64,000 bases of DNA. Source: Chrysomallon squamiferum (lineage: Eukaryota; Animalia; Mollusca). Made by a program: the position numbers and the translations under genes. The notes under the pieces are model-generated. The model searched no databases. It worked only from the letters and a program-made list of their open reading frames with translations, and was not told the origin of the DNA. The stretch lies in the NCBI GenBank assembly GCA_012295275.1, contig CM022665.1, forward strand, positions 11,966,001 to 12,030,000, given 5' to 3'. Shown here one piece after another: positions 17,017-62,547 of this stretch; the stretch's first letter is position 1; each line of letters starts with the position of its first letter.

Positions 17017-17050
<34 letters not shown>

Positions 17051-17051
17051 A

Positions 17052-17096
<45 letters not shown>

Positions 17097-23045: not shown

Positions 23046-23055
23046 TACAAATATT

Positions 23056-23092
23056 AATAAAATAAAATAAAATAAAATAAAATAAATAAAAA
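23056..23092. repeat. (ATAAA)n microsatellite
   Basis: Directly visible pentanucleotide repeat. Confidence 0.85.
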
Positions 23093-27732: not shown

Positions 27733-28100
27733 TTTTTACACTTTTTCTTTATTTGTCATGATATTTGTTTTCATTGCATTTCTGAATAATAATAATAAGG
27801 TTCATGATGTTTTTGTATTTGTCTCAAAGTCTGAAGTAACAAATAGGGATAAAAATCAAATTGTTTTCTTTCTTAGAATATAAACTTTTATAATTTAAAA
27901 CATAATACATAATAATAAATGATGTTCTGACATATAACACTATTAAATGTACCAAATAATTAAATTTTAAAAATAACTTTTTTGTTGGTAACTAAATACG
28001 CCAGTACATTATTTCTTAATAAAGGTTTTCTTTGTTTCAGAGCTAAACATATTTGACAAAGCCCATTTTATCAGTGTACTAAAATAAACAATACTCAAAA

Positions 28101-28172
28101 ATGGCAACTGAAAATGACATGCGATCTGAACTTCAAGAGCTGCAGATGCAGGCTAATGTAATCACTGATGAG
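28101..28172 (+). CDS. SNAP25: SNAP-25 first coding exon 2a: [24 protein letters not shown]
   Basis: Acceptor tttcag at 28040, aaaATGg start, donor GAG|GTAAGA; resembles the SNAP-25 N-terminus MAEDADMRNELEEMQ...DE. Confidence 0.93.
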
Positions 28173-31100
28173 GTAAGAAAATTATATACTAATATATGAA
28201 ATTCTTGAGCTATACTGAACCTAAGAATATACCATTATTTTGATTAGATTTTATAGTTTCACTATTAATTTTAACATTTATGGCAGGTACCACTTTTTAA
28301 ATTTGTTTTCTAAACTCGCATTACATTAAGTTGAAAAAATATTAAATAAAACCATTTTAATAAACGTGCATTTTTATAACTTATTACAAACAAAATTACA
28401 TATATAACACAAGTGAAAAATGTTGGATCTTTTGATCCCGAGATTATTTTTTTCTGTGCTATGACAATTATTTGGATACCAGAAGATGCATAAAGTAGTA
28501 ATCTTTTGAAATTATTGGATGCTGAGGGGTTGCTTCATATAAACTACTGGATTCTTCAGTCACAAAAAGAAATAAGAAATGAATAAAAAAATTCACTTGA
28601 TCTATTGAATCTTAAACAGGGAGTTTTTATTCAATAAAATGAATTTAGATTTACCTGATTTAAGTAAAACATATGGTAAAGAACTTGTTCCAGGAAAGAA
28701 AATGGGGTTAAACAAAAAAACAAAATTGATTTATTATGAATTTGATTAATATCTGAAAAACATACCTTGCAGGAAAATAGTTGTACAATTAGTAGGCCTT
28801 TGTCTTAGCAAAGGCACCATTTTTAGTGCATAATGAACAATTTTCCCCATACCAGGATGAAGCTTGACATACTAGTGTACTTTTAACAAATGAATGCAAA
28901 TTGGGTTGTAGATGCAGAAGTAACATGGAGCCCTTTTTGTCAAATGTCTTTGATGCACGATCCTCTGATAGCAGTTTCACCCTGCCATTTGCAGGTATTC
29001 AAAAACTTTGTGTGAAACAGCTACTCCACAGTAAGAACATTCTTTTAAAAAAAAAAGATATATATTTTTTGAAGATTACTATGAATATTGAATATTCAGG
29101 CAGTTAGCAATGTCTTTGCTCAGAGAATCTGCACAAAACTAGGCCACTAAACTTCCCTCTTGGAAATTTAATCAGCATAGTCGGAGAAAAGTCACATTTT
29201 ACAAGCATCCTAAAAAATCTGTAAAAACACACCAATATAAATTACATAAACTTAACTATGGTTCTGGAGAAATTGATGATCTTTCCACAAATTCTCAGCT
29301 AACTCATGAACAAGTCATTGGTACCTGACATCATTCTGTGGGATTCCCTGGTCAAAACCAAGATGAATATAATTAAGCTTAAAAATACATGTTTCATATT
29401 TTTGTTTTGGGAACAGAATCCTAACTTGTACAATAAAATAATATAAAACAAAAATATTTATTCCTTACAGAATTTAATTGGAATATATAACAAAGCATAA
29501 TAGGTTTAATATAATTTTAATTATTTTGTATTAGTGGAAGTACTATTGTTTATTCTAACTTGCAAGATCATGGTAAATGTTAGGTTTTTTTTCTAAATTC
29601 ATACCTCATTTTAAGCAATTTAGGATCCTATATATAGTGAAAAAAAGACTTAATGAATTTAAGACTTAATCTGCCTTTCAGATTATTGGTAACTGTGATT
29701 TGGGTTAAAAAAACAAAAGCTGCAGCTGATTTTGGCTTGTGACTGAAAATAAGTTGGATCTTGATAAATAATAATATTAATATTAATGTTCTCATTATCC
29801 ATCCTATTGTAACTCATTCTAATAAAAGTAATAGTAATAACAACTGAAACAGGATCTCTAATCAGAATCCGGTGAAATCAGAAAGTGGGAAAGGCCGTTT
29901 TCATTTGTGAACCTATTATTTTGTGGTTTATGAAACATCTTGCTCAATAATTCAGTTATCATAAAGCTTTTTATTGATATTTTTGTCAGTTCACAGGCTG
30001 TTGCTAGTACTATCAGATTTCTGACTCATTCGCCCATGCTGTTGACACTTAATATAAAATAAAACAAATGTTTGTTATTGAATTAGAAAATTAGGTCTGT
30101 ATTCATGGTCTCAGCAAGCAACAGATGATGCCACTGTGTAGATAATATTGCAAAATAAATATGGATAATAATACAGCAAAATATTAAAGTTAATATTTTT
30201 TTTATATCAGTTGAAAATGAACAAAGTACACATGTATTGTAAAATACAGTTCTTGCCATTATGAGTTGTCTCTTTATAGTATCTGTAATACATAATCTGA
30301 ACAAATATATATATTTTTAATTTTATTATTATCTTCCTTAGCACAGCTCCCAAGCCACTATTCTGAATAATTATCATTTAGAAAGTACGTAGGAAATTAT
30401 GTGTGGAGCCAAAGGCATGATAGCTCAGAAACGGCATGGAATCAGTAATTTTGTAATGTTCTGTATTACTAGGACATTTCTTCTGATGTCACATTGAAAT
30501 GGTTCTCTGATAACTAATTAAAAACATAAAGTGACAAGTCATAAATTATAATTTGTACTTAAAACTGGAACTTTTGTCCTTAATTTGACATTTGTTAGGT
30601 TTTTTTATGCTTTTTATTTTTTATTTTGTAATTGATGGAGCTTTATCTATTTTTCTGATTAAAATGAAAACTAAATGCCAAAATTAATGGAATTTTGTCT
30701 GCCAAAAAATCAAATGTCTACATTTTTGGAGCTATTAATTTTTTTAATAAACAGTTGAGTGGCAGTGTCACAAAAAATAAATACATGTTGAGTAGTGAAA
30801 TTTTATTTCCACTTGGTGATAATATTTCTCAAAATCTGAAAATCCTTGGTGAATCTTTTCTGTGGTTATTAAATTCTGTATTTTTTGGAACTAGTAAACT
30901 AAAGTAATTAAATTGGTTGGGTTTCACAAATAATATTAATATTTACAGAAAATATGCATTTGCATGTCATTTACATTATTAATTTTTTCTGAGCTTTTTA
31001 GAGTATAACAACTGGTGTTTTTTTTTAAATTTACAGTTCCATGTAAGATTCAGAATTTATTTAATTGACAAGCAATGTTTTGATCTCAGATTTTAATCAC

Positions 31101-34100
31101 AAAACAAATATTAGAAATTAATAGCTGTTCAGCAAAATTCAGCTTCCAAAACAATAATTTTTATTATTACTATTATTATTTTTTAATAAAATAATAGTTC
31201 AAATTATTGCAGATTTTTCATCTTTTTTGTTAACTGGATTTTAAAAACCCATAACAAAAACATTAAAATGATGAAACATGTAAGTTTTGGAATGGCTCAA
31301 GTTAACTGAACATATAATTTTCCTTCATAAATAAAATTTTGTAAAATGATAAGTTAAATGTTAGGAATTAATTTTGTGGGGGTTTATGGTGTTTTTTTTT
31401 AATTTCCCCCAGAATGTTTATATTACTAATGTAAAATAGCATTTATGTGTATGCATTTCTGACAAGTTGTGTATTTGCACTAAATTACTGACCTGCTTCT
31501 AAGTCAACTTAAGATTTTACCAAAATACTGAAAGAAATGCTCATCAGCATCATTTCATTTTATGTAAGTTTTTTAAAATTATTATTTATACAGGCGTTTA
31601 TCAACAATCTGTAAACTCCATTGTTAATTTGCTAGTTGGGAGTACCTTCCATATTCACAATAAAAGCAAATACTGGAAGTTACTGTTTTTTTTAATAATA
31701 TACTATTTTTAACAAATAAAGAAAAAAACAAAACAAAAACAACTGTAACACATATTTATATATATCTGTTTCATAAATGCTTCTTTTCAAGCATCTTCCC
31801 ATTCTTTCAGCTGTGCTCCAATTAAAACTCATGCAGCCTTTTCTTTGGGTAGTGGTTTTTGTTAAAAAACAACCACTGGCTTTAGTTTTGTCCTATCAGT
31901 CAAACAAGCTAAAATCATGGTAAAATGTATCTCATCTCCACAGTTTCATTGAAATGGTTCTTCCTTTCATACAAACAAGGTAATTTCCTGGCATTTCAAA
32001 AAACAAAACATTGGCATTTTATCCATGTTACCAATATTTATGATAAAATAAATCACTTTCTTTTGTTTATTTTTGGGATACAGATATAATACCCCTAGGA
32101 CAAAAGTCCTCCCAATCCAAAAATGTTCAGGTGAACAGAGGCCACTAGTGAAAAAAACAACATAGTACAAGTGCACTCCACTTAAAAAAAAACATTCTGT
32201 CATTGACTGATATTTTCCCTGACACATAATTATCAAAATCATGGAATTCTTTTAATTAGTTATTCAGTCAAGTAAACTGGGAGTAATCAGCTTTAATAAC
32301 TGACTAACTTTAAAAGTAATCCATATTCAAGTGAACTGATATCACCATGATAATTATAATCAAAAGGTGTTAAACAAAGTTAAATACTTAATTTATTTTG
32401 CCATGGTAGTGTGAGACACTATGTGACATAGTATACCTTAGAAAATACAAAATGATTTTGTCGTGAATCTAGTTAGATCTGGAGTTCTGTCAGCTTTTGA
32501 TATTATTTTCAGAATGAAAAAAATCCCATCATAAACTGGTACATTATCTCATTTTGGATCATGTGACTCCATGCTTTGGTATAAAGTCTCAGTTCAGTTT
32601 GCATCCTTCATCGTAATTGTAATCACTTTCAGTTATTTTGTATTAATTATGTTTTTATTAGACAAACACATTAAACTGATTCATAGTTATGCCATTGTTA
32701 TAGTGATATTGATAAAGATACGTAGTATATATACTTTAATAAAGTGTGTGTTTGCAAAGTTACTTTTTATCTATGTCAGGGCTTTTGTCCTACCTTGTTT
32801 TTTCACTGGGGGGGCTTTTGTCCTACTTTGCAAATGAGCTTATGTGCATGATATAATGTTTCATACAATTACAGATTTTCCAAAATTAGAAAAGGGAAAA
32901 ATCAATACATATTGATGAAAGTATTGTCTTTGATATTCTGGTCAGTTCACTCCTCACACATACATTTTATTCAGGGTGCGCAAATTTAGTTTTGCCAATT
33001 TTGGGGCCACATGATAAACACTTTGGTTTTGAAATTGAAAAAACACACAATGATTGTTTAACCATTTATAACTCTGAAAAATACAAGGATCATGCAACAG
33101 GAACCATTCCTGGGTTAAGACCAATTAGTGCCAGGATCACATCAAACTGGTTATGGAAACCCAACATCTGATGACTAGCCATACTCCCACTTTGGCTTCT
33201 ACACAATCAGCAGGCCTGCTTAACATTGTGCCAGCAACATCTAAGGTTCAGGCGACAAGACTGAGACAGTACTGTTCACAGATGATTCCAGGTTTCACCT
33301 GGACAGCTGTGATGGATGTGCAGTGGCCTAAAGACATCAAGAGGATTGTTTTGTCAGTGTTTGCATCATTCAGCATCACTGTTTGGATGGGGAAGTGAAA
33401 TGGTTTGGAGTGGTATCACATCTCATGGACTGACCCAGCTTATCATTATTTGACTGCTATATGCAACCAAGATGACATTTGACCTTACCTTCTACTCTTT
33501 TCTCAAGCACAGGGATGTAACATTGTATTACAGCAGGACAACATCCGCCCACATATTGAACATGCTGTAACTGACATCTTAAGAAAACAGAACATTGATG
33601 TTCTTCCCTGGCTCCCTGTTTTATCAGACCTTTCACTAATTGTACATATCTGGGATGACATGGAACAGTGTTTACATTGTAACCAGAATCACCCTGTAAT
33701 GCTTGCCAAGTTGAAACAAGCTTTGATTGAAATATAGAACTCAATCCCACAAATCTTTTTCAACTCTCTAGTTTTGCCTGTGCAGTGCTGTTACCAAGCC
33801 TGTATGTATCAATGCTAATGGTCACACACACCATATTAACTCTGTGAATTAACTTCTTATACCACCCCTCCTTTGGGCCATATATTACAGCTCTGTTCAT
33901 GATGCACAGTTACTTTTTTCCATTAGTATAGTTTATATTCTGCATCATATAAATTGTTTACATATTACCATGATTGAAGTCTTTACTAAAGACACTGAAA
34001 TTTACAAACTACAGTAGAATGCAAAATTACACTAATATTTATTATTGAAAATCTGACTGAGCAAGAAGTTTAAATATAATCATTTGTTTTACACACAATA

Positions 34101-37100: not shown

Positions 37101-40100
37101 TCAACATTTTAAGTGCCTATTACACATATGTATTTTAAAAGCCTTGTACATGTGGGATATAATTCTTAGTGTTATTTTGCTTTTCCACTGAATTGGCTGG
37201 ATATACTTTGTGGTATCTAACGGTGTTTTCTAAACATCGTTGGAGGTTGTCTTTTACTAAGTAAATGAGCAATGCACAAGTTCAAAATGGTGTGGGTCCA
37301 GCAGGTGTTGACATGGATAGTATGGACCCCGAGGCAAGAGAGCTCATGGTTCAGATAGAAGACAATGTCAATGAGGTAGATTATTTTTATTTTATCTTGT
37401 TAATTAATTAGTATTCTTGTCAGATTTAAATTTTGTGATATTTAATAAATGTTCATGTATGGAATAAATTTTATTATGAATTTAAAGTAATTTGTTACTT
37501 GTAATTTCTTGAATCAGTAATGAAAATACTAAAAAGGTTTCTTCCATTTAGCTGAAATTTAAAATTACTATTAAATGATGGTCGAATTACATTTCTGAAC
37601 AGAATACAGAAAAATGATTACATAATAATCTGTCTTTTTAGAATAATAGATTTTAAATGTTTTTCATCATACATTATTGCTTTCTTTTTCATCTCTTTTC
37701 ATAAGAATTTTCATAATAATAATCTATATGAAACTATATTTTGTAGACTTGAGTCTTTTGGTAAACCATATAAAAATAATGGATTAGTAATATATTTTCA
37801 GTAAACATACCATAAAATTTCTATATATATCTGACTTTAGCCCTATTGTTACATTATCAAGGCGTTTGTTAAAGAAATTATTACTGTGTTGTTGGGTTTT
37901 TGGTTTTTTTTTTAATTACTTTGATAAGGACGGAGCCAATATTTGGGAGCTTCATTTGTCTTGTGACTAGTTGCAGATGAAACAAATTCAATTAGAGGAC
38001 TTTAAAAATCGATATGCATTGGCAGCACAATATTTCAACACTTGTTAATGATTGCATAATCTTTTTTTATTTTTTTATTATTTTTTTTTTTCATAACAAA
38101 TAAAAATACAGTTTTAATTATATGCAAAATAATATTTAATTTGGATATAGAAAATTAACTTTATACCCACTCCTTAGTTATTTACAAGATATACAGTTTT
38201 GAAGTACATTTTATTTGATCATTTTGTCATGAAATACTGTAATGTAATGTGTAAAACCAATAACCTAGTTTTAATGTAATCATAATATATGCAAATGTAA
38301 TGAACAAAAAATAAATGAATTATATCCAGCTTTAGATTCAATGTGAATTACAGAATCCCAAAGTTCACGTTATAGAATGAAAAAACCCAGAAAAACCCCC
38401 CAGTGTTCTACTTCTCACAAGCAGCATTTCAAAGACTTTAGGTTTCCTGGTGTGTATTCCATGATAAATTCCAGCCTGTAGTTTGACCATAGGGCATGAA
38501 AACAATTCTGTTATTCCCAAACGTTATCTGAAAACAGATTGGAATATGTGAATCTTTTCAGATGAGCTAACAATAAGGAAAACAAATTCAACATTTCTTC
38601 TTTTTTATATCGGATTTATTGAACCAATTCTCTGCTTTATGGAATGAATATCTTCTAGCTGTACATGGAATCTTTTGACAGGATTGACCTTATAGGGACA
38701 CATTTAAATGAAGTATTGCATATTATTTTGTATATTAAATTGATACATTTCCTATTGTTTACATAGAGGTATGTCAGATCTAAATATGTAAAACCAGTAT
38801 TAAAAACTACAGAAATTATTATGGCTTACATTTATTTGTGTAGTTGGTAATGTTTACATTAATAAAAAGGAACATAATCTAACTTAAGCTAGAGGAATTT
38901 ATCTTACTAAACTTAAATTTATTATAAAATGTCATACACTATGCCAATTTTCTTCCTTTTTTCAGTTTTTTCTTACTGACTTACATTCATTCATTTGTAC
39001 ATAGTTCTATTGATTTCTAACCTGTTTAGACACCTTTTGCTTCATTGTTTTATTCTAACACTTATTTTTCATTGATTACTAATGATTTCTCTTGTTTTGT
39101 CAGAAACATATGCCCTGTGGACAAATACAGCAAAATGTGTACAGAACATTTACTTTTTAGATATTATTTATTTATATAATAATATTCTATCACTTTGGCT
39201 TATCCGTAACTTGATAGTTATTTCAGCTCTTTTATTAATATATAATAATAAAATACAAGGTTTAAAGATAATTATTTTGTATATAATGTGCTTGTCAAAT
39301 TCATGTTTGTCAACTACAGCATAAAAGAATCACCATTTGAGCAGTATGTAAGTGTATCAGCATAGTTATTGATTATTTGGTGTTACCCTTCTTTGTGTTC
39401 TGGTGTTGATTTGGATCTATATGAATACTGTATTCTATAATAAATGAGAAATTTATCTCCTTTCTCATTGGTAAATGAACCTCCCAGGACCATCAGGGGT
39501 CTGTCATGCAATGATTAATGCCTGAATGTTTTCCTTTGGGTATTTGTTTGGCACTACTTTATGCAAAATCCCAAGATAACATCTGTTTGGAAATGTGACA
39601 ATAATGATAATACATTGTTACATCACAATAGATGGTCTTCAGGTTTGCCATAAAATAGTTATGTTTTCTTACAACATTTTATGTCATTTATACACCTATA
39701 AAATGATGATTTAAAGTTACTCAGTTAATAATAATGACAATTGTTTCTTTTTATCTGATAACAATAGTTAATATTTTACGATAATTGGCAGTAAATAAAA
39801 ATATTCTTCCAAAACCAGTTTAACTTTGCTTTCTTTTCATTGTTTGTTGTTGTTGTTATTATTATTATTAATTTTCATATAATTTCCTGCAGAATATTTT
39901 TTTTGGTGGGGGGGGAATTTGATGTTTTAACATTTTTATACGTTAATTTTATCATGTTAGAGCAAATAAACTACTTGCTAAACATAGCAGTGTGGCAAAT
40001 AAAATTGTCCAGACAAATTACCGATATACTCTAGATAGAAACCTTAGCTGTGTTTTATCAATGCCAATTTAGTTACAGTTGTGTTTTCTAAGCCAGTGAA

Positions 40101-43100: not shown

Positions 43101-46100
43101 AAAAATTATTGTCCATGTTTTTGGATTTTCAACAAGTAAATAAATAAATAAATAAATATTAATAATTAAAAAATAATAGGTATAAATATAGCTTAATTGT
43201 ATAGAAAGAAAATGACTAAATAACCCAACATATATATATATTTGTTTTCTTATTTTTTCATAATGATTTTTTATGTTTTTTGATACACTCTTTGAAAAAA
43301 CCCAGTGTTTTACTTCTCACAAGCAGCATTTCAAAGACTTTAGTTTTCCTGGTGTGTATTCCATGATAAATTCCAGTCTGTAGTTTGACCATCAATGGAA
43401 ATACTCTTATAAACATTCTTAAAAAGGCAATATTTTAACTGTTGATAACATTTGGCATTTCAGCACAACAGCTGCTTGTTATTTTTTTTTCACTTTGGCA
43501 ATAGATAAAAGGTCATTTTGGTTTACAAATATTATATATATAAAAAAAAAAAAAAAAATTTTTAATTTGAGCAACTATTTTTTTTTCTTTGTTAAATGAT
43601 TTTTTTAGTTTAATGAAAGTACTGTTAATGGTGCATGTGCACATTATTTTGTTTACCATTGCATATTCCAAACTACAAAATGTTCTAAAAAAATCATTTA
43701 CAAAAGCTGACAAATAAAATTTTGTGCAAAATAATTATTTTATAATTAAATAGCATTTATTCTAAATATATTTTGAAGAAGTTGGTTAGATTCATATTGT
43801 TTTTAACATTTCCATCATATACTTCTAGGGAAGATCTTTATTTATTTATTTATTTTTTATCATTTTTTTTTTTTTTTTTTTTTTTCAGTCTCTGGAAAGC
43901 ACACGACGTATGCTGCAGTTATGTGAAGAGGTAAGATTCATTTTTTGTTTCAAAATTTTTTGTTTAATTGGTTTTAATTATATTTTAATTAAAAAATGTA
44001 TATATATTATATAAACAATTTTAGTTTAATTATTAATGGAAATTTTTTTATTTTTTATTTATTTTTTATTTTAATGTATTATGAACATTTTTTTAAAATG
44101 TGAATGATTTTTGAAGGAAATAAAGAATTTTAATTTAGAAATACTTATTTGTTTAATACATTTATTATTATTATCATTTCTTTTTCTTTTTTTTTTTTTT
44201 TTTTTAGTAAAATATTTGATTAATAAGTTTTTTGTTTGTTTGGGTTTTTTCTCCTTCTTTTTTAGTTTTTTTAATCCAATATTTGGTCAAAGTTACATTT
44301 TTTAATACATGAATGTAAAATTTAAAGCAGTAGTTTCTTTATTTTCATTTTACCTTCTTACATTTCAAAATATAATTTGTTTTTTATTTCATCTGAATTA
44401 ATTTAAAATCAGAATACCAGGAGTTATTTTATTTTATTATTTGTATCATTATTTATTTATTTATTTATTTGTTCGTTTTTTTATTTATTTTTTTAAATAT
44501 GGTGGAAGAATAGCTGCAACAATAAACAATTTTCATTTGTGTTTTTTTATAGTTTTAGAAAACTTTTCAAACAAAGGGACTTAGTAAACTGTAAAGTCAT
44601 TTAATTATTTCACCTAACATGCAATAGTTTCAATAAGTATAAATCTTATGAAAACTCGTTTTATTTGTTGCATCTGCTCTGTTGTTCAGAGCAAGGAAGC
44701 GGGCATCAAGACACTTGTTATGCTCGATGAGCAAGGAGGTAAGATAGCTATCAGTGTGTCCAAGTGTTTAGTATGCCAGTCAGAACAGTTCAGAGAATGC
44801 AACCAATTTATGGTGTGTATGTAACTGATAGTTAATTATGTTTAACAGTAATGGTGATGAATCAGCTTGAGATCAATTTCCCCTAGATAGAACCAATTAG
44901 CTTTTATTTTTTATTTTTTCAATGGTACTAGTTGGCAGAAGCTTTTGTCATTTTTTTATTTTTTATTTTTTTATTTATTTTACAAAACAGTCCTTCTCAG
45001 CTCTTGTGTTATTGAAAAAAAAAAAAAAAATTGAATGTTAGTTTCACAATCAGTTAAATTGGAATTCATGAATTAATTTCAATCTTAAAGTAGATAAAAA
45101 TAATGAAATAAAGTTTCTGCTTTGAAGGACTGTTTTTATCTTTTGCTGTTGTCATCACCTCATACCTGTTATTTTAGCTAAAATGAAAACCTGAAAAATA
45201 ATGGAGATAACATTAATATTTTACTAAGTTCTCTGAGCAGTTTTGAATGTTACATATTGTGAAGTGGTCTGATATAGTCTGTCTACAGATGTGTAAATAT
45301 ATAATATTTGGTTTTGCACATTTATAATGTTTGTTGCAACACAGTTATTTTTAAAGAAGAACTTGTAAAATTATTGAAATGAAATTTTTAAAACTGTTTT
45401 TGTTTTTCAGGAATTTGACATTTTATTTATAAAGCAGTGTAAAATACAAAAATAGTCATCAAAGCTGATCTTTTGCATCCACTTCTGGATCAAGTTACTG
45501 TTAAAGTCATGTCTTACAAATATTTGTTTATTAATTCCCAGAAAAAAAATCTGAGAAAATCTGTATAATTGCAAAATTCTTTTAGTTTCATAAACCAGTT
45601 ATGTTTTTCAGTGATGACAAGATAATTATTGTTATTTCAAATTTACAAAATGTAGATAATATTTGAATGCATGAAATTGTACATTTCATTTATTTAAGAA
45701 TGTTTTTAATGTTGTTGTTTTTTCTTTCTTTCTTGACACAAGTAATGTTTTTTCTGTGCACTGTATTTACACCAGTGAAGTTTGCTGCAACGATTTCAGA
45801 TTTCATGAAAAAAACAGAAGAAAAAAACCCAGAAATAAAAGAATTAATGTTTATCATTAGAGACATTACATACTAAAATAGCACATTCCCACACATATAT
45901 TATCTCAAACACATTAAATTAATGTAAAAACAAAGACTAATCCACAACAGCCAACATATTCCCAGAACATACCTTTTTTAATTTATTAATTTTGATTTTA
46001 AAAATTTTATACTTAAAAATAATAATTGTCAAAAGAAGAAAAAAAACAAAAATTATTTATAAGAAAAGATTTAATTTTAATGTCATAAATGGATTAACCC

Positions 46101-46827
46101 TGAATGATGCATAGGTGTACAAGTCAACCAAGCATGTTTTATCTTGCAGGCATAAGAAAATAATTAATATTGTTTGTATACATTTTACAGTTGTGAAATT
46201 ACCAATTACACTTGCAGCAAACTTGTTAAATTCCCTAAAAATGTGTAAAATCATAAGTTAGCTTTAGAACATAGATGTTATTAATATATGTTACCCCAAA
46301 CCCTTTTTGTCATTTACAGAAAGCTAGTATTCCAACTTCACTGGTAAACACGATAGATTTGCTGTTGTCACCGTGCTTTTAGTTTCTGTTTGTCTGTTGT
46401 AAATTTCAGAGCCAGGATGTGGGAATCAAAACTATAGTAATGCTGGATGCTCAAGGTGGTAGGTACTCCACAGAAGTTCTTATTAGCACATCTTCGTGCA
46501 TTTAAAAGAAAAAAAAAAGAATTTGAAGTATTTAACACAAAATTCAGTATTACTAATTTTTAATCAAGTTGTTCTCCCCAATATAATCTGTTCATTCATC
46601 CAAATGAATACCATCATCACATTGCATTTAAATTCAGTTAAGTTCAAGTGTCAGCTCTGAGAGGTAAAAAATAAAATAAAAAGAGAGATAAATTTTAATA
46701 TTTAAATATTATTGTAGAATAAGAACTATAATTATAAATAATTTCATCTGCAAAAATTTTAATAATTAAATAATGCATGCATACAAATATGATTTATTAC
46801 TTTTCATTATATTATTTATTTATAAGT

Positions 46828-46877
<50 letters not shown>

Positions 46878-51225: not shown

Positions 51226-51279
<54 letters not shown>

Positions 51280-54200
51280 GTACTGAAAGATAAATATTCT
51301 AAGTTTCCAAGACATAATGTTTTAGTGTTTTTAGTTGTTAACTCTGTTTCTGATGTTTTTTCTGATTGTTCTAAAATTTACAGGTATTTCTAATGACATG
51401 TTGTTTTTGCAGAACAACTTGATCGTGTGGAAGAAGGAATGGACCAGATTAACAAAGATATGAAAGATGCTGAGAAAAATCTGGAAGGAATGGAAAAATG
51501 CTGCGGACTTTGTGTACTTCCATGGAAAAAGTAAGCAGTTCTAAAATTATTTGGATAATAATAGTTCTAACGTATTATTTCATTTTTAATACTGTGACAT
51601 AAAAGATAAAATGATTTTTAAATTATATATCAAAAATGTTCAATCAAATAGAATTATCCCTGCATTGAAGCAGTTATTTCAATTCACTGTTGGGCTAGGA
51701 TTGTCTGGAAACTGACATTTCATTGTAATCAAAACGAAACAAAAAAAAAAGAAGAAGAAGAAAAAGAAAAAAGAACAAACAGTTCTATTTACTCTGTAAA
51801 ACAAAAACTGTCTAATATATCAAAGGAAATAATTGTTTATCATGGAGTAAATGACAGAGATGCATGCATGGTCATTACTTCTGAATCTTCTCTCTCAAAT
51901 ATTTACAGTGTATGATTGATACCCTAATTGCAGACTCCACTTGTTTGTATTTTGTCTCTTTCTGTTCAAATTCTGTAGTGATTGAAGTTCTAAGTTTTAG
52001 CCTTTCACTGGTGATTATTTTCAGCAGTGGTGCAGAAATATTATTAGTGAGACATTTTTCAGAACTTCTGAGATCTTTTCCATTGAATCAGAAATGCAAC
52101 ACCTTGATCTGCAATCTTACAATCAATAGTAATTTACTGTAATTATTACAATTATCAGACAAAAGTATGTATTTGTCATAGTTACTATTTGTTGTCTTGC
52201 TTCACATGTCTATCAGCACATGAATGTAAATAATATTGTTCATGTTTAATTAAATTCGTTTAGATTAGATTGTATAATTTCAAGGTTAAACTGTTTTATA
52301 AAATATGAGTTATTCTGGATATTTGACAAACACTATTCATGATTTCATCTTACTTCCTCATCACAACACTAAGCAAAAGGCTGTATCTTGAATAAATGTC
52401 AGCTGGTTCTTTAATCAGGTGCCAGTTAATCATGTAAACAGATTGAAATTGTCATTTCTTAAATGACATCACCAGTCCTTCTTTGACTTGCTTGACCATT
52501 ATTCTCAACATGCATGGTGGCATGTGTCCATTAAGCACCCTTAAAAGTTATTTCTCTTATCTGATCGTGTTGAGTTCAGGAAGTTTTAAATGAGATTGAG
52601 TTGTTAGCTTGAAAGGAAAGATAATGGAAATAGCCTTCATCCATATGGAACACAAGTACACAGTGAAATAAAAACCATTTCTTTGATGTAATGTGAATTT
52701 CTTTTTGAAACATTGAAAGACATTTCTGTTTTTGACAGATGAAATCATGTTAAATATTGTGTTATACAAAGAAAGTTAAAATGCTGCCATGTTAAATACA
52801 AATATGATTGGAAGTCTAACTTTAGAGCAGTTTTCTGATGGATATGTTAAAGTATTAATAAACATTTTTCAGGATGGATGAATGTGAAACATAATAAATA
52901 TGATGAATATAATATTAAATATATTTTTACATGTAAAAATGTTATATTTCAGTTAACTAATTTTTAATGTTTCTTCAGTTACTTCATTTTAAAACAAGTG
53001 AGGTATGTATTGTTACTCTGAAGTATAACTAAAATGTAAATAATATATTTTGTTCACTGACTAATAATTTTTTTATTTCAGCTTAATATTAAGTATAATA
53101 CTATTAGGAAGAGGAACTGGTGAATTTTTGTTATTTTAATGTTGTTTTTTTTCTTTATTAGAAAATTTATTGTTTTAGTATTATAAGGGAAATTGTTATA
53201 GTTAAAAGTTTTGCAGGAATTATTTTTATCTTACATTTCACTACATAACTTTTATTACTGTGCTCAGTATTAAAGATATTTGCAATTTATCACTGAACAA
53301 ATTACTTCAAATCAACTCGGTTAGTCTACGAAGTTGTTTGAATAAAATTGATCTAGACACTGAATACCTTATTAATAAATTATAATGTAGATTCTGAGTT
53401 ACAGAGCCCTCAAAAAACATTAATGCTTTGTTTCTGGTGTTTTAATCTGCAGAGGTAAAAATTTTGAAAAAGGTTCTGACTACAACAAGACATGGAAAGC
53501 CTCAGAAGATGGCGAAGTGAATGCTTATGGACCAAGGGTAATAGTTGCTGATGCAAATCAGGGTCCAGGAGGTGGATATATTACCAGGTATTTTTATGTC
53601 ATGCTCATCTTTGTTTTTCAGGGGTAAAAATTTTGAAAAAGGTTCAGACTATAATAAAACATGGAAAGCCTCAGATGATGGTCAAGTTAACACTAATGGA
53701 CCAAGAGTAGTTGTAGGGGAACAGCAAGGGTTTCAAGGTGGCTTCATCACAAGGTATTTCTCGAAGCTTGCCTTGTGGATTAGTTGTAACCAGGCACCTT
53801 CTTGTGAAAAAACAGGATACAATTGATGTCAGTTTTATTGTCTTCATTACAAACAAGATGAGAGCAAAGATGGTTGCCTGGTTTCAACAAGAATCCATGT
53901 TTTTCCTCTTTGCATCCTTTTTAAAAAATTTTGTATTAGTTGCAGGGTTCCCATCTGATAAATAATAACCAACATTAAAAACTTCAAAAATTCTAACCAA
54001 CAGCAACTTGTTAACAGGTTTGGCAGTTTTCATATATAAAATTCTTATGGGTACCCTTGCTCTTCTGCATCATTTTACTGCATTTTTGGAAGTTTGCACA
54101 AATATTCCATTTTAATATTATCACCACCAGTGCAGTGATTAATTTGTTAGAGAGGATATTTTTTCTAAGCATCCTGTTAAATGTGCTACAGATATAATTA

Positions 54201-57200
54201 TACTGTTTGTTTGAGATTCCAATAAATAGTTACTTAATTTTTAATTTTTTATTTTTATTGTTATTTATTTATTTTATTTTATTTTTTGTCTCAATAAATA
54301 AATAAATGAAAACAGAAAAAAACAAAGATTTATATTATTGTTCACTATTTCTTCAATTTCTAGTAAAATGCTTTTAATACAGTGTAAAATTAACTATTAG
54401 TGGATGCCTAGAGCAATATCCAGGCAGTTACTAACTTAATCACTTTTGCATCCTGTTAATTTGCCTAGCAAGCTATAAAGCTGGTTTTGACTTAACACAA
54501 GTCACTAGTGCCATGATTTTGCATATTTGTAACTTCATTACTATGCCTGATTTTGAAATGATATTGTGTAGTTTCTAGGATACTTTTATTAAATTTAATT
54601 TTATTCTTATCTTTATGTGCCAATAGTGAAATTTGCATCTTGGACATTTGCATGATAAGTGATTTAACTTATTCATTTGGCAGCGATGTCCATACATAAA
54701 CCAAGATTTCAGATGAATAATTACTACATTCACCCTTTAAAACTTTGAGTTATAAAGCAAAATTACCTTTTTTCCTTGGCAATTCAGAATTAAAATCTCA
54801 CTCACTCTATCACACTAACATCACTTTCCTTAATTTTGATAATTAACTGCATGTATTATCATGCATGTCATACATTTTTAATATCAAAATAACACCTTCC
54901 ACAAATTGTACACTGCCAAACAAATTCATCATCAAAATTACTGAACTTCAGATTCATTATCAGGGTTATTTATATAAAGTTGATTATATTTCTAAATATT
55001 TATCACTGAAGTATTCCATTTTGAGTATAAATAATATACAATTTCCAACATTAGAATTCTAAATATTTTATTAAAACAAATAATAATAAAAAGTTTTAAA
55101 TTAAAAGTTTATATGAAGTGAAATTTTAATTAACATATTTACTAACATAACTATCTCAAACTACCTTGTTGATAATAATGCATAATGTAAGAAAAAGAAA
55201 CATGATTCAAATTTATGCAAATGTTTACACAAGAATACTTGCACACAGAAATATACTTAGACATGAACACAAAATATGGAGTTAATGATTTAAAAATGTG
55301 AGATAAAATAAAAATACATATTTTTAACAGTGTAAAATGACTTTCAGTTTTTGTAGTTTAGAGGATGCTATTTTGTTACAATAGTTTTATTCTACTTAGT
55401 ATATTTTGCACATTTTTTTCATTTATTAGTTATAGTCTTTCTTACTTTACAATTTACCTCTTACTGCTGTATCTTATTATACATATATATAATTTTTTTT
55501 TTAAATAGTTTAATAATTTACTTAAAAAACTTAATATATCACCTACATTTTTTAATGGCATTTTGTTAATTTGTTGGTTTCATTTAGTTTCTCAAATATA
55601 TTTGGGTGAGCAGTTATTCAGTAAAATAATTGCAGTATTATTATTAAATCTGCATGGATTACTTTAATTGTATTTTGAAAAAACAATCATTTCATAGGAA
55701 AAAACAAAGTACCATTAGTAATAATATATAGATTATAAGCAACTGAACAATTTGCTTATATAAAGTGTATTTTATATTTGTCTTCTCATTTTTTTTTTTC
55801 TAATTATTGTTTTTATTTTACTTAAATAATAATTTTCTCATAAGCTCATAACCAGTAAATAAATAAATAAATAAATAATACATACACTGTGGTGTAACAG
55901 CATCTTTTGAATATTTTAACATAGAATAAAGATTTATAATAGTAACTATATAGTTTGTATTTCTGCATATAAGAATTATCTTGAATCTTCAGTTTAGTGT
56001 TTAGAACTTAAGATGTGTCTGGAATAACACTGTCTTTACAGTATTGGTTCTGTACAAATTTCTTTGTGAAATACTGAAAGCAAGTTTCCTGATACATTCT
56101 TTAAAAGCTATGCATAAAGTTGATTGATTTCTTTCTTATTTAAGAAGGTGCTTACCAAGTGCATTTTATTTAAACCAAAATTATGCACCACAGCTTTACA
56201 AAAACCCAGACAAAAAATAACATTAGGAGTCTTTTCTAGCACTATTTGTCATGCAAGGTTATGTTTTCAGTAAAAGGTTAAGCATGAACAATTTTCAATA
56301 TATGCTTAACATTAAATCAAATTTCTTGTTGATGCTGTAATTAAAGATAAGTATAAATGTACTTAAATCTTTGAGTTTGAACAAACATTTATGAACTTCA
56401 CCGCTATTGTTGCAAATCTATAATTACAATTAGATAACCTTTTTTAAAAAAAACAAATAATTAAAATATATAAGATGTATTCTTTTTTCTTTTTTTTCCG
56501 TATGAAATTTTGTTTTTTTTAAATATTTTGAATAATGACCAGTAATATTTATATCCACTGTAAAATCTACTGTGACTAAAAATCCGTGACTGTTATATGC
56601 CAGTGATTTTCTCAGTGAAAGTAAATAAGTAAGAGAAAATAAATCAAAATAACCACTTACATCATTCTGTCATGTTCTGCTTTTGTTTCAACATTTCTTT
56701 TCATACAGTGTGGCTATAGACTTAGTAAATTATAGTCATAAATCTGTATTCCCAAATAAAATACTTTAAAGTACCAAAAATGTATTCATATTCTTATTAC
56801 TGCATAATTTTAATTTACTCTTCTTTCTTTTTCTTTTTTCCTTTTTTTTGTTTTTTGTTTTGTTTTCATTCATTTAATAACTATAGTAATATGATTCTTA
56901 AGATTTATTACTTACTCTAAAAAATTGTATCTACAATAGAAACCAATCAAATTAACTGTTCAGGTTAAAACAGACTGTTTTAATTCAATGAGTCTTTATA
57001 GTATTAAATATAAATATTTTTTCTTAAGTCATCATTTGAAAGGAAATCTATTTGCTTTCTGTAAAACATGTTACAAGTGAAATAGACCTATGTCTGTTAC
57101 AACTGTTATACAGGGAACTGAGCAACATTTGTCTGTTGATAATACTAGCTTCACAGACATGAAATTAACTGTTATTTGATGGATGCTGAATCAATATTTA

Positions 57201-58771
57201 TACACACATGCATTCTGCCAACATTTCCATTTGTTGAGTTTATTTGCTTTAGCATTTATGGACCTGAACAGTGTGCCCATATGTTTGAACAGACATTTAA
57301 GTAAATGTTCATTTATTAACTGTACATTGAAATGGTCATGAAGATAAAATTCAGATCTTCACACTTTCATTGGGACATTTCATTAGGCCTGTTCTTTATT
57401 GTTAACCGAAGTTTTACTGTCTTCTTATACTGGCTCATAAAAATAAGGTATTGTCCATGATCTAAAAACATGTAAACCACATAGGCATATCTGTATTACT
57501 TAACTGGTAATATAATTTCATTGTGTTGGACTTTATTCTCTTTGAAATTATGTTTTAGTGCCATATGGACACAAAGATCAATATATGTTACTATTATTAA
57601 GTTGACCTTAAAGGCTATCACTTGAAAACATTTGCATTTAAAAATTCGTTAGAAATTATAAAACAAGGTGTTACGTAAAACTGATATAACTGGCTGTGTG
57701 AGTTCATTTCAGGTTTTTAATACTTCAGTTAATGTTTCTTGTTCATTGTTTCTGTCATTAAAACTAAAAGAACTTACTGAAACTGAATACTCAAGAAATT
57801 TGAGTATCTCTGGTTAAAATAATTGCAACAAAGAGTGTCTTTGTACTGCAAGCTAGGACATAAGACTACCAGTTGAAAGTTGTTTTCAGCTGAATGTGTC
57901 TATCAAAGACAAAGGCTGGTACTGTAATTACATTATGCTTGGAGCCAATTATTGGTTATCTGTAAGGCTAGCTGTCTAATTTGTACAAGGTTAAATGATA
58001 CACTGTTAAACTAAAAAGCCACAGATTGCTGGAAATTAGGATAATGGCTATATCACCAGAAGAACATTGACATCCTCTCAAAAGGCTTTCTTACTCATTA
58101 ACCTTTTCCTTTTTTTTTACATCTAACAATCAAGGATAGAAGCATTGTGTCTCTCATTAATCTTTTGTTGATTACAAGATGCTGTTGAAAAGATACACAG
58201 TAAGCTGATGTGTACACTATTACAATTAGAACAGCTGCTTTCATTATGATCACAAAAGCAAACAAAGGGTATAAGAACAGTTTTATATTCATTAATATAA
58301 AATGTGATGTCAAGAAAACTTTATTTTTATCTGAGATGTTCTGTTGAAAAGTAATGTCAAAGACATAAAACATATTGACATCTTGATTTACCTTTCATGC
58401 TTAGAGTAAAATTACTTTTAATGAAATTAATTAGTAATTATTAATAAATATAGATTGGTGGTCTCATATATTTGTTAAATGTATGAGAGATGCCAGTGGT
58501 AAGTATTTAAGATTCAAACTGACTAGGACATTCCTGGAGAGTAGAACGTTTTAAAAATAAAAAGAAACCTTATCTTTTGATACATGTTCTCTTGTATGCC
58601 AAAAAGAGGTAAATGCTATGTAAGTATTAAACTATTTTATTATATAAAAATGGATATTTTTGATTATTTAGAAATACATTACCTTTGTTCTACAGTTTTT
58701 ATATCTGTCTATATATGTAATTAACATGTAATTAACATTTATTGTGTTTGTGTGAATGTGCTCATTTTGTG

Positions 58772-58806
<35 letters not shown>

Positions 58807-61800
58807 GCTGAAAAAATATGTTCATGTATTTGTTTTAATATTAAGGATAACAAATGATGCTAGAGAAGATGAAATGGAACAGAACATTGTTGAAGTGGCA
58901 GGGATGATTGGCAATCTTCGTAACATGGCCATAGACATGGGCAGTGAAATTACTTCTCAGAACAGACAAATAGATAGGATAAACCAGAAGGTAAACTTTT
59001 AAAATTTATTATTATAAATTTTTGCAGTTTTGTATTGTTACTGGTGATATCTGTAAATATAGCTTTTGTTCGTTTATTTATTTATTTACTTAGTAACAAG
59101 AAAAAAAGAAAAAACGAAAGTAAAGAATTAGGCTATGTAAATTTTTAATGACTATTACTACTATTATGGCAATGCTTTCTAAGCAATAAATTCTTTTCTG
59201 AACTTGATTATTTCTTTTTATAATAATAATAATTTAAAAATCGCATAAATATCCCATATTATTTTTTTGTTTGTATATTGTAAATTGTTAACCAAATACA
59301 ATTAGTCATAAACTCACATTACTATTTTAGGGTTTTGTGTTTAATTAATATGATAGGATATTCACGTGTAAAAAGTGTTAATGTTAACACATTTCACTGA
59401 TCCAATCATTATATTTGTCTGATCTTTAGCTAAATCATGTCTAGCCTTCAATTTTTCATCATCCAGCATATAATAGAAGGCTGTAAAATGTTATTTATGC
59501 GTAAAGATATTGCATAACTTTACAGAAATGCTGGGCATGATTAATCTAGAAGGTAAATGCCTTGCAATAAAAACCTTTTTCTATTATGAAAGTATATGTA
59601 ATTTAACTTCTAAAGATTTTACATTATTGTTACAAGAAATGCACAGTAGTGTAAAATAAAAGAAGATACATATACACTCTGTAGTTAACAGACACAAAAG
59701 TCAAAGTTCAAGAGATTTTCTTGATGTTATACGAGTATCTTTTTCTGGTCATTCATTTGTTGGACATAAAGTGTCTCAAGTCACATTAAAAGGAGGCACT
59801 GATCATGAAAATTAATCAATTATTAGGAAATATTTATTTCATTGTCAAAATGTTGCTGAATAGGTGTTTGGCACATTTCTCGTAAGCCTGTTCATACAGT
59901 TTTTAGTTTCGTTTTTATATGCTGTATAAAACACTACCATGCAGAAAAATTCATTAACTGTTACAATACTATAATGGGCTGCCTATTGGGAATGTTATTG
60001 GCAGATGAACCTTCAGTAAAGTGCTCTGTTAGAAATCGATCTGAGCATAATTTTGTCAGCAGTCTTTTTGAATGTTTTAAAAAAAAAAAAAAATTATTAT
60101 TGACATATTAAAAACTAGATTAATAAAATAAATTTTAAATTCATCAGATAGTTAAAAAAAAAAAAAATTAATTTTGAGTTAAGATGACTGAATTTGTCAG
60201 ATTTCTGCTAATTTAAAGGTAATTCTCAGGAATGAAAGTAAATATATATGTGAACTTCAGTTTTAAAGTCTATTTTACTAATAGCTTTACATATTCATAA
60301 TCAAAATTCAGTTTCACTGGTTAAATGAAATGAAATTTATATTTGTGTTCATGTAAATTTACATAATAAAAATACAGTTTCAGTGGTTATGAATAGATAA
60401 AGATTTCATGTAAATTTATTAAATTCAGATGCCTTAAATTAAAAAGATTTTTGGCCTTGGGAATATAATGCAGTACTAAGTACTGCATTAAAGTTAAAAA
60501 CAAAATAACTATATGACAAACATTTGAACATTTTTTTAAATTATATTTATTTATTTTAACTGGTAGATTATGATTAAGCTTATTTCATCTAATAACTTGA
60601 TCTTTCAGGCTACTTCAAATGAGACTCGCATCTGTGAAGCAAACAAACGAGCTACCAAAATCCTCAAAGATGCTTAGAATATATCAAGTGATTATCAGTA
60701 CATATATATATATATAGATAGATAGATACAGATATATTTACAGCATGCATTATTTACTTTATTCTAACCATTTTTTCTTTCGTTTTGCTTCATTTTGTTA
60801 AAGGCATGTGGAAATTGTGATGGCCTCTGCAGCTTATTATTATTTACTAATATACTTATTTTATTCAAAAAAACAAAACCAAAAAATATTACCAAATATT
60901 TTATTGCTTTTATCTGTAGGAAATAATCCTTAGACTGGATTCCTTTATTGCTTCTTAAAACTCAGAATTCTATGTGTACACCTGCTCAGCATGTAGTTTT
61001 TTAGAGCATAAAATGCTGTAAATTTTCCATAATTAGTACATTATTGTAACTGTAATTTATAATTATACTAACAGCAGTTATCCAGAGTAAAACAAATTTT
61101 AGTATATATTTATTTTATTTTTGCGATTATTGAAATATATTTTGAACTTGAAACTAGTAACACAGTACTGTTAGGGTTATTTGTTTTCTAAAACTTTTTA
61201 TTACAGACCACATATGTAAGCCATCAAATTTGTGCTGTTTAACTCCAAAACACACTGTATTTAAATTTTTAGCATTTTTTATTTTTGTTTTGTTTATATT
61301 GTTTGTTGTTTTTTTACATAGTTTAGAACTTTTTTTTTTTTTCTGTCTTGTGTTTTTAACATTTGACAAACTAAATCTTTAATCTGTGATATTACAGAAC
61401 ATGATAATCATGAACAATCTGACAATTTTTAACAGAATATTATAGGAAGATCTAAATACTTTTGAAACAGTTGTAATTAATTCCTTAGGTATTAATTCTT
61501 ATCTTTGCTAGAAAAAACATTTTTCAGAATTAAATGAACTAAGAATTAATAACACATAACTTTAAAAAAATACATTAAAAGATATATTTGTACATTGTTT
61601 CAATTTCTTGCTTTCCATCTCATATAAATGATAAACATCTATACATGTTTAGGTAATTTCAGATTCATGTTGCAAGACGTTTCTTTCAATAATAATTTTA
61701 TATTTTTTAAATTTATTATTACTATTTTTTTAATATAATTTCTTTAAAAAGCAGTTGAATGAAATTGTTCCAGTAATGGGAAGTAACTCAGTTTGTCATT

Positions 61801-62547
61801 ATAAATTATCACTCTCTTTACTTAAATGTTCTGACAAATATATGATTAAAATTTAGAATAGATTAAGTTATTGTTCTTTTAATACAGAGTATTGATTTGT
61901 AAAATGTACTTCACTGCCTGACTGAACTTCAGTGTTTATAGTCTGTTCTGAAGATTAGTTCCATTCTGTGATTGTATCATACTTTGCACTTAAGCAGTTA
62001 GTTCTGTTTTAATATGACAAAACATATTTGTTGTTTCAGATTTGACTGTCTTTATATTTATTTTGAACCAGTTATATTTCTGAAGTCAATTTTCAGTAAT
62101 TGTACCATTTTTTCTGTCAAAAGAATAACATTTTCTGGATTTTTATATATATTTATATATTATATAAGTAACTTGTATCTCAAATTTCATTGCATAATAC
62201 ATTGTTGCAATGCATAGAGTGTTCAAAAAAATTGTTAATAATTAATTTCTTAATCTGTAAACCATACAAACTGATGAAAATACTGTACCATGTTATACTA
62301 AACCTGATTATAAAATTGTTGCTCTTACAGATTCTTACTTATTTAGAATTTTTTAATTTTTTAATTTATTTTTGTTGTTATTGTTTCTGCTGCTGCATGG
62401 GCTACTGCATGTTTTTCATTCTGATTTTAGAATTCAGTTTTATTTCATTCATTTTTTAAGTTATGTTTTTACTTTTAGGCTGGCAAGTTGAATGATCGAG
62501 TGGAATCTGCAAATGTCCGTACAACAAAAATTCTTCGGAACCTTTGA
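28101..62547 (+). CDS. SNAP25: SNAP-25 (Qbc-SNARE) gene with duplicated alternative exons; e.g. 2a-3-4a-5-6b-7-8a gives 208 aa
   Basis: Exons encode [44 protein letters not shown]...[22 protein letters not shown]...[36 protein letters not shown]. Exon sizes 72/42/49/118/145 nt and their phases correspond to the vertebrate SNAP25 structure as recalled. Confidence 0.97.
32840..33920 (+). mobile_element. Decayed Tc1/mariner DNA transposon, copy 2
   Basis: Motifs [41 protein letters not shown] interrupted by stops and frameshifts; shares 5' (ggtcagttcactcctcacacatacattttattcagggt) and 3' (agctctgttcatgatgcacagttacttt) sequence with copy 1. Confidence 0.85.
37265..37375 (+). CDS. SNAP25: SNAP-25 alternative first coding exon 2b: [37 protein letters not shown]
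   Basis: 111-nt open frame from aaATG to a phase-0 donor GAG|GTAGAT. The C-terminal part ([12 protein letters not shown]) aligns in register with exon 2a ([12 protein letters not shown]). GC-rich codon-like composition in an AT-rich intron. Confidence 0.75.
38398..38490 (+). repeat. About 92-bp direct repeat, copy A (copy B at 43301-43392)
   Basis: cccagtgttctacttctcacaagcagcatttcaaagacttta...gtagtttgaccat; about 3 mismatches to copy B. Confidence 0.9.
40625..40727. repeat. (TTTTTA)n microsatellite ending in poly(T)
   Basis: Directly visible. Confidence 0.9.
43301..43392 (+). repeat. About 92-bp direct repeat, copy B
   Basis: Near-identical to 38398-38490. Confidence 0.9.
43889..43930 (+). 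CDS. SNAP25: SNAP-25 exon 3 (single copy): [14 protein letters not shown]
   Basis: poly(T)-CAG acceptor, GAG|GTAAGA donor, 42 nt. Confidence 0.96.
44690..44738 (+). CDS. SNAP25: SNAP-25 exon 4a: [16 protein letters not shown]
   Basis: ttcag acceptor, G|GTAAGA donor, 49 nt, contains the zero-layer Q of the first SNARE motif. Confidence 0.95.
46410..46458 (+). CDS. SNAP25: SNAP-25 exon 4b (duplicate of 4a): [16 protein letters not shown]
   Basis: tttcag acceptor, G|GTAGGT donor, same 49-nt length and phase, 11/16 residues identical to 4a. Confidence 0.92.
46830..46886. repeat. (AT)n/(AC)n microsatellite
   Basis: Directly visible. Confidence 0.9.
48567..48835. mobile_element. Non-autonomous hAT (Charlie-like) MITE
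   Basis: Terminal inverted repeats CAGTCATGGGCAAACT / AGGTTGCCCATGCCTG, subterminal (t/c)ggcctgcc motifs, degenerate 8-bp flanking duplication cattagta / ctttaata (6/8, central TA). Confidence 0.75.
49010..49288 (+). mobile_element. Highly degenerate SINE-like remnant
   Basis: cccattgagttatttctcatcc..tcaaaggctatg..ttgctgct..tgtggtctt..gagtacatcattaaata; resembles the same SINE family as 1552-1737 (recalled, not searched). Confidence 0.4.
51228..51275. repeat. (GT)n microsatellite upstream of SNAP-25 exon 5
   Basis: Directly visible. Confidence 0.95.
51413..51530 (+). CDS. SNAP25: SNAP-25 exon 5 (single copy): (E)[38 protein letters not shown], with the palmitoylation Cys cluster
   Basis: ttgcag acceptor, AA|GTAAGC donor, 118 nt. 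Confidence 0.96.
53453..53587 (+). CDS. SNAP25: SNAP-25 linker exon 6a: [44 protein letters not shown](R)
   Basis: ctgcag acceptor, AG|GTATTT donor, 135 nt, phase 2-2. Confidence 0.93.
53622..53753 (+). CDS. SNAP25: SNAP-25 linker exon 6b: [43 protein letters not shown](R)
   Basis: ttttcag acceptor, AG|GTATTT donor, 132 nt, phase 2-2; tandem duplicate of 6a. Confidence 0.93.
58769..58807. repeat. (TG)n microsatellite just upstream of the SNAP-25 exon 7 acceptor
   Basis: Directly visible. Confidence 0.9.
58846..58990 (+). CDS. SNAP25: SNAP-25 exon 7 (single copy): [48 protein letters not shown]
   Basis: AAG acceptor, AAG|GTAAAC donor, 145 nt; second SNARE motif with zero-layer Q. Confidence 0.96.
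60609..60677 (+). CDS. SNAP25: SNAP-25 terminal exon 8a: [22 protein letters not shown]
   Basis: ctttcag acceptor, phase 0, TAG stop; canonical SNAP-25 C-terminus (compare ADSNKTRIDEANQRATKML). Confidence 0.95.
   Translation, partial: ATSNETRICEANKRATKILKDA
62479..62547 (+). CDS. SNAP25: SNAP-25 alternative terminal exon 8b: [22 protein letters not shown]
   Basis: cttttag acceptor, phase 0, same 23-codon length as 8a, conserved A.....R(I/V)..AN.R.TKIL pattern, TGA stop. Confidence 0.88.
   Translation, partial: AGKLNDRVESANVRTTKILRNL

Follow-up and report, generated by a model that had tools for sequence, protein, structure and literature searches.

Accounts of SNAP-25 isoform diversity usually centre on vertebrates, in which a duplicated and mutually exclusive exon 5 yields SNAP-25a and SNAP-25b (PMC2581893) and SNAP-23 is encoded by a separate gene. 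The account of this duplication did not find it in the ray Torpedo and dated it to early bony fish (PMC2581893). Among the records collected here, the Carcharodon SNAP-25-like proteins X1 and X2 (P0261 and P0471) differ in the exon-5 segment alone, an observation that stands despite this dating. In C. elegans, the orthologue ric-4 has alternative first exons that are chosen by neuron type (PMC12084653). Here we analyse a 64,000-nucleotide stretch of the genome of the snail Chrysomallon squamiferum (GCA_012295275.1, contig CM022665.1, positions 11,966,001–12,030,000 of the forward strand; hereafter the window), which carries a single SNAP-25-family gene on the + strand (28101–62547) with the coding layout 2a/2b, 3, 4a/4b, 5, 6a/6b, 7 and 8a/8b. 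We think it likely that this is a gastropod-type SNAP-25 with four alternative-exon pairs, of which three probably go back at least to the ancestor of molluscs and nemerteans, and that the choice between exons tunes fast against general release.

The locus and the vertebrate SNAP-25a/b switch belong to the same family and share a tandem duplicated, mutually exclusive exon that recodes part of a SNARE helix; however, the vertebrate duplicate (exon 5) is single here, as a sequence-only reading of the window had recognized, and the alternatives in the window gene lie at exons 2, 4, 6 and 8 and can be combined. The ric-4a/ric-4b pair resembles exons 2a/2b in providing alternative N-terminal first exons of a SNAP-25 orthologue, with a choice made by cell type, but offers one choice only, against four pairs in the window gene (PMC12084653). 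RefSeq sets of invertebrate SNAP-25-like proteins share the exon 2, 4 and 8 types (Gigantopelta X1–X4, Haliotis X1–X8, Mercenaria, Mytilus, Lineus X1–X16, Apostichopus X1–X7 and Diadema). Two types of exon 6 are found in Mercenaria as well, so that the window is not alone in having a gene with four choices; these sets are automatic annotation, and neither the window's 6a nor the 34-nt spacing of 6a and 6b occurs in any of their records.

One gene with four exon choices

The Qbc-SNARE (SNAP-25/SNAP-23) family is recognized by two SNARE helices and a linker with a cysteine cluster, and by PF00835. Both 6a and 6b scored above the PF00835 cut-off, Q53 is kept in 4a and 4b, and the Gigantopelta orthologue aligned with solved SNAP-25 over residues 25–218 (E 1e-65); the N-terminal exon 2a gave a weak match to residues 1–24 of vertebrate SNAP-25 chains (E 0.23). 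Among named relatives, Gigantopelta aegis comes closest (exons 5 and 7; Table 1). All 11 coding exons were confirmed within the span of the gene, with AG acceptors for exons 3–8, GT donors for exons 2–7 and the same phase in partner exons, in agreement with the intact splice sites and matching phases described from the sequence alone. When every exon was used in a sensitive tblastn search of the window, no extra copy was found of exons 3, 5 or 7, which had likewise been read as single. An Rfam search gave no matches. Two degenerate transposase remnants, presumably Tc1/mariner-like judging from translated fragments, lie upstream of 2a (27000–27560) and between 2a and 2b (33000–33850).

All 16 of the 16 exon combinations are open, without an internal stop, and would give products of 208–222 amino acids; the earlier figure of up to 16 isoforms thus stands as regards reading frames, but is a ceiling on the number of products. 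The proposal of four duplicated pairs requires a similar adjustment. All four are alternative, and partners at exons 4 (11/16 identical), 6 (32/43) and 8 (9/22) are homologous duplicates, each similarity being matched by 0 of 2000 shuffles, whereas 2a and 2b are no more similar than expected by chance (6/24 identical, a score reached by 503 of 2000 shuffles) and are alternative N-termini whose duplication is not demonstrated. Pairs 4, 6 and 8 accordingly consist of homologous partners in the same phase, as in tandem duplicated mutually exclusive exons, and 2a/2b lack that homology. As 2a and 2b each have their own ATG, and 8a and 8b their own stop, they represent a choice of first and of last coding exon, respectively, and not internal cassettes.

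The arrangement predicts that partners would exclude each other. Exons 2a and 2b would be exclusive as first coding exons (start codons) and 8a and 8b as last (stop codons); it is possible that 2b uses an acceptor at 37261 or has its own promoter, and with the AG at 37261 as acceptor, 2a–2b joining would lead to an immediate in-frame TAA. Inclusion of both 4a and 4b would shift the frame and terminate at codon 71, and omission of exon 4 would likewise shift it, with a stop at codon 55. Joint inclusion of 6a and 6b would keep the frame; here it is the gap of only 34 nt that is predicted to prevent joining. A built-in bar to double inclusion, judged by sequence logic, is therefore present for exons 4 (the stop at codon 71) and 6 (the gap). 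These two bars are also those of sterically enforced mutually exclusive exons, for which a donor-to-branch distance below 50 nt is the steric criterion (PMC5740500): 6a/6b fall below that distance and 4a/4b shift frame on double inclusion, although that distance was derived from human data and is here carried over to a mollusc. Either-or use of exons 2, 4 and 8 is seen in the records of relatives, and one transcript (L001) has an open reading frame that ends in an 8a-type exon, followed 1.1 kb downstream by an acceptor and an exon of 8b type, in the same a-then-b order as in the window.

Exon choice and the synaptotagmin interface

With exon 2a included, residue numbering equals that of vertebrate SNAP-25. 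The primary interface with synaptotagmin comprises K40, D51, E52, E55, Q56 and D166, and SNAP-23 differs from SNAP-25A by K40Q, L47I and V48T (PMC8967716); the same interface has been modelled in C. elegans (preprint 10.1101/2025.09.30.679486). Exon 4 encodes part of this face: 4a has K40, L47, V48, D51 and E52, and 4b has Q40, I47, V48, D51 and A52, that is, two of the three SNAP-23-type changes (K40Q and L47I; V48T is absent) together with E52A. SNAP-25 shares K40, L47 and E52 with 4a, and SNAP-23 shares Q40, K45 and I47 with 4b; SNAP-25 and SNAP-23 are, however, separate vertebrate genes, and SNAP-23 has T48 and E52 where 4b has V48 and A52. In the PDB, 4a is matched best by squid SNAP-25 (chain 1l4a_C; the squid protein crystallised in 1L4A has 4a-type and 8a-type segments) and 4b by SNAP-23 (1nhl_A), though only narrowly (E 0.016 versus 0.06). 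From the interface residues and these matches we infer a strong-docking form, in which 4a would keep the full primary interface, and a SNAP-23-like form, in which 4b (K40Q, L47I and E52A) is predicted to bind synaptotagmin more weakly. One K40 exon and one non-K40 exon 4 occur in 20 of 22 taxa with multiple variants, the exceptions being Pecten (both K) and Choristoneura (neither).

The other choices would alter different parts of the protein: at exon 8, the end of the second helix nearest the membrane; at exon 6, the linker; and at exon 2, the N-terminal extension. Relative to 8a, exon 8b replaces S187, N188 and I192 with K, L and V, and we take residue 187 to be a kinase site and residues 188 and 192 to be core layers. 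No PDB match to 8b was found at E ≤ 10. Exon choice would in this way yield fusion proteins suited to fast calcium-triggered release or to general secretion. The earlier suggestion of synaptic and general-purpose forms from one gene fits the exon 4 residue swaps; its further part, an independent local origin, does not hold, for reasons given below.

Several observations weigh against a simple division of labour between neuronal and non-neuronal forms. SNAP-23 still supports calcium-triggered fusion with Syt2 (PMC8967716), and E52 is retained in the 4b-type exons of Patella, Biomphalaria, Mercenaria, Lingula, Diadema and Apostichopus, so that 4b need not be calcium-blind. C. elegans uses both ric-4 first exons in neurons (PMC12084653). 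A Lymnaea record (P0037) combines 2b, 4a and 8b, which indicates that a choice of a or b at one exon does not fix the choice at the others.

On another explanation, real and old exons would serve to adjust release from one neuron type or developmental stage to the next, and not to set neurons apart from other cells, with the SNAP-23 likeness of 4b being retained ancestral sequence. The difference between ric-4a and ric-4b across neuron types (PMC12084653) and the function of SNAP-23 with Syt2 (PMC8967716) would agree with such tuning, and an ancestral Q40 would agree with amphioxus, tunicate, hemichordate and two divergent records (P0323 and P0328), in which Q40 and no K40 form was seen. However, the interface positions hardly vary in 4a, and it is precisely there that the second exon does vary. 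Moreover, K40 goes with N188 in 16 of 20 records and non-K40 with L188 or V188 in 23 of 31 (51 transcript-type records, which are not independent), an association (51 of 52 records, p 2e-4) that is a hint only, being inflated by kinship, a 4b-biased query and short-read assembly. We regard such tuning as a serious competitor, though an unlikely one, and continue to favour a choice between fast and general release.

Use and age of the alternative exons

Nonsynonymous divergence between partners is lower than synonymous divergence at exons 4 (pN/pS 0.15/0.73), 6 (0.14/0.64; Fisher p 4e-7) and 8 (0.52/0.81), and 6a and 6b look to be under constraint. Gigantopelta RefSeq proteins contain orthologues of 2a, 2b, 4a, 4b, 6b and 8a (Table 1), and their isoforms combine 2a/2b with 4a/4b in all four ways. 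Exons of the 8b type are absent from Gigantopelta RefSeq but common among other molluscs. RNA from four runs of one study and from one run of unknown kind contains 0.44–0.83 of the words sampled from 53400–63300, a match that we did not use as evidence of splicing, given that coding exons make up only 550 of the 9,901 bases.

On the debit side, neither 6a nor 8b occurs in any of the four Gigantopelta RefSeq proteins, none of the 27 hits to 6a is more than 77% identical to it (so that 6a may be rarely used), and the use of each exon in C. squamiferum is itself read from sequence rather than from junction reads or tissue data. Exon 6a could accordingly be a silent or decaying duplicate, leaving three working choices instead of four: it is missing from all four Gigantopelta proteins and has no orthologue among the 27 hits. 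Against this, 6a has an open frame, intact AG and GT sites and a length divisible by three, and its pN relative to pS is too low for free drift since the duplication. We consider a silent 6a improbable and retain four working choices.

To place the pairs in time, named proteins of 23 taxa were cut into exon-sized segments, and four insect gene models with tandem exon 4 copies were added. At least two variants were found for exon 2 in 16 of 23 taxa (15 if amphioxus, where the difference reflects pooled species, is discounted), for exon 4 in 22 of 27 and for exon 8 in 19 of 23. Molluscs, nemerteans and echinoderms have annotated isoforms that differ in the choice of exons 2, 4 and 8, a brachiopod has them for exons 2 and 4, and insects have them for exon 4. 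A four-point score favoured orthology of the a and b types in 15 of 16 (exon 2), 22 of 22 (exon 4) and 18 of 19 taxa (exon 8); this test leans towards orthology because the a exons are conserved, which counts against the age that we propose, and a stricter one was made by counting residues specific to the b exon of the window gene. For exon 4, 2–4 of 5 such residues are present in most molluscs, Lingula, nemerteans and echinoderms, 1 in Pecten and 1–2 in insects. For exon 8, molluscs and nemerteans share 2–5 of 10 and deuterostomes 0–1. For exon 2, gastropods other than Gigantopelta, a chiton, Lingula and Lineus share 3–5 of 10; the 2b-type exons of bivalves and deuterostomes share 0–1 of 10, which also counts against a common age and makes separate origins possible.

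In a tree of exon 8 (37 rows, 22 columns), 12 L188-type rows of molluscs and nemerteans fall on one side (94/89, just below the starred level, with a bootstrap that had not fully settled), and a clade of the window's 8a and 8b was rejected (p-AU 0.021). Tree and rejection together make pair 8 at least as old as the split between molluscs and nemerteans. Exon 4, at 16 columns, is below the 20-column minimum for a tree; pair 4 probably dates to the bilaterian ancestor. Pair 2 is old within lophotrochozoans, and its homology beyond them is unproven. The exon-6 tree is mostly unresolved, with 6a, 6b and Gigantopelta exon 6 on one weak side (79/84, not starred); 6b is closer to Gigantopelta exon 6 than to 6a, and 6a/6b is likely to be a younger duplication that preceded the split from Gigantopelta. 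The two exon-6 types of Mercenaria isoforms belong to a venerid pair that groups apart from 6a/6b in the tree.

Variant numbers exceed two in places: there are five exon 4 variants in Lineus (the P0020 cluster), three in Mytilus and oysters (the P0110 and P0052 clusters) and three exon 8 variants each in Liolophura, Mytilus, oysters and Diadema. A second SNAP-25-like gene seems to be present beside the multi-exon one in Crassostrea virginica (P0091) and Babylonia areolata (P0228). In a transcript and metagenome scan (79 loci kept of 251 relatives, mostly transcripts), two exon-8-like segments were found in 5 of 79 loci and two exon-4-like segments in none of the 79. Four arthropod-type SNAP-25 transcripts (L029 at 659–790, L052 at 783–915, L054 and L055) carry two exon-8 copies 3–4 bases apart, apparently separate and recent duplications of the last exon.

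The sequence-only reading had proposed that this lineage built its alternatives independently. That all four pairs arose in this snail lineage is very improbable, given that variants of exons 2, 4 and 8 sort by type across species and not by species, each being far closer to the same type elsewhere than to its own partner, and that the 8a+8b clade is rejected; lineage invention is contradicted for exons 4 and 8 and tenable for exon 6 alone, where 6a, 6b and Gigantopelta exon 6 share their weak side of the tree and most molluscs sampled have a single exon 6. Only the 6a/6b pair may thus be local. An artefact in which haplotypes or paralogues were merged, which the earlier reading had called unlikely, has next to no probability, given that synonymous divergence (0.64–0.81) is far above that of alleles, exons 3, 5 and 7 are single and other species annotate the same alternatives within single genes.

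The ZNF106-like neighbour and the SNAP25/SNAP23 pair

On the − strand, a ZNF106-like gene (about 4900–23800) faces the SNAP-25 gene in head-to-head orientation, with the only CpG-rich stretch lying between them at 22–25 kb (13, 30 and 27 CpG per kb, against 0–8 per kb from 25 to 64 kb), where the two genes are likely to share a promoter. Zfp106 has zinc fingers at both ends and WD40 repeats before the last pair (PMC2837044, PMC4706115), and the architecture of the neighbour matches this layout, although its Pfam hits fall below the cut-off and only one N-terminal finger was seen, so that the identification, based on architecture, is tentative. An ESM Atlas search of the neighbour returned generic C2H2 clusters without the name ZNF106, and the other sequence searches gave it no name either. 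In gene lists for sheep and cattle, ZNF106 and SNAP23 are neighbours (PMC8355708, PMC10384200), and a figure legend places a SNAP23 homologue in the same region (PMC4806994). If the neighbour is ZNF106, vertebrate SNAP23 kept the ancestral position. We also assume that ZNF106 and SNAP23 are head-to-head in mammals. At the far side of the ZNF106-like gene, and tail-to-tail with it, are exons of an F-box protein (1–2800, + strand), which by its look of an FBA sugar-binding domain we take to be FBXO6/44-like, a label that was not searched.

A tentative and rather doubtful scenario would connect these observations: in the bilaterian ancestor, a gene head-to-head with ZNF106 may already have switched between SNAP-25-like and SNAP-23-like products through its choice of exons, vertebrate SNAP25 (4a-type) and SNAP23 (4b-type, at the old address) may be frozen splice forms, and molluscs may have kept the switchboard and added the sterically locked 6a/6b. 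The Q40-only records of amphioxus, tunicate and hemichordates argue against frozen splice forms, as Q40 may be ancestral, and the 16 residues of exon 4 cannot yield a tree.

Table 1. Features of the window (positions from its first letter; identities are to Gigantopelta).
Feature	Position	Strand	Remarks
Closing finger pair, ZNF106-like gene	about 4900–5260	−	CPWxxC motif; WD40-like exons before
Very large low-complexity exons (two), ZNF106-like gene	18296–20656, 13417–15666	−	
N-terminal C2H2 finger, ZNF106-like gene	20870–21187	−	
Candidate non-coding exon 1	24570–24649	+	start uncertain; CpG-rich stretch; consensus donor at 24650; putative exon
Exon 2a	28041–28172 (CDS 28101–28172)	+	24 aa; canonical SNAP-25 N-terminus; 20/24
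Exon 2b CDS	37265–37375	+	37 aa; alternative acidic N-terminus; 31/37 (RefSeq X1/X2)
Exon 3	43889–43930	+	single; 42 nt
Exon 4a	44690–44738	+	49 nt; residues 39–54; K40, L47, V48, D51, E52; 16/16
Exon 4b	46410–46458	+	49 nt; Q40, I47, A52; 15/16
Exon 5	51413–51530	+	single; 118 nt; cysteine cluster; 38/38
Exon 6a	53453–53587	+	135 nt; linker variant without known orthologue; PF00835 42.4 bits
6a–6b gap	53588–53621	+	34 nt; predicted too short for splicing (<50 nt steric criterion, PMC5740500)
Exon 6b	53622–53753	+	132 nt; linker variant annotated in Gigantopelta; 41/43; PF00835 42.8 bits
Exon 7	58846–58990	+	single; 145 nt; most of second SNARE helix; 45/48 (94%)
Exon 8a CDS	60609–60677	+	proximal last exon; N188 type, shared with vertebrate and squid SNAP-25; 22/22
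Exon 8b CDS	62479–62547	+	distal last exon; L188 type

Mutually exclusive SNAP-25 exons are already known (PMC2581893), ric-4a/b has been described, and exons 2, 4 and 8 are present in automatic annotation. No paper describing the exon architecture of invertebrate SNAP-25 was found in the literature covered, which lacked supplements and most subscription journals (including older SNARE-evolution papers). The architecture is real, mostly ancient and annotated, yet apparently undescribed in papers; the new points are the 6a/6b pair with its 34-nt spacing and the ZNF106-like neighbour.

The records indicate that many invertebrates diversify SNAP-25 at exons other than the vertebrate exon 5, one of which encodes the synaptotagmin docking face. 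Studies of ‘the’ molluscan SNAP-25 have used one of several forms, and the alternative exons offer natural variants with which the relation of the docking face to release speed could be probed in molluscan neurons, which are classic synapse preparations. If the link to SNAP-23 is true, the vertebrate pair would be a case in which gene duplication fixed two older splice forms.

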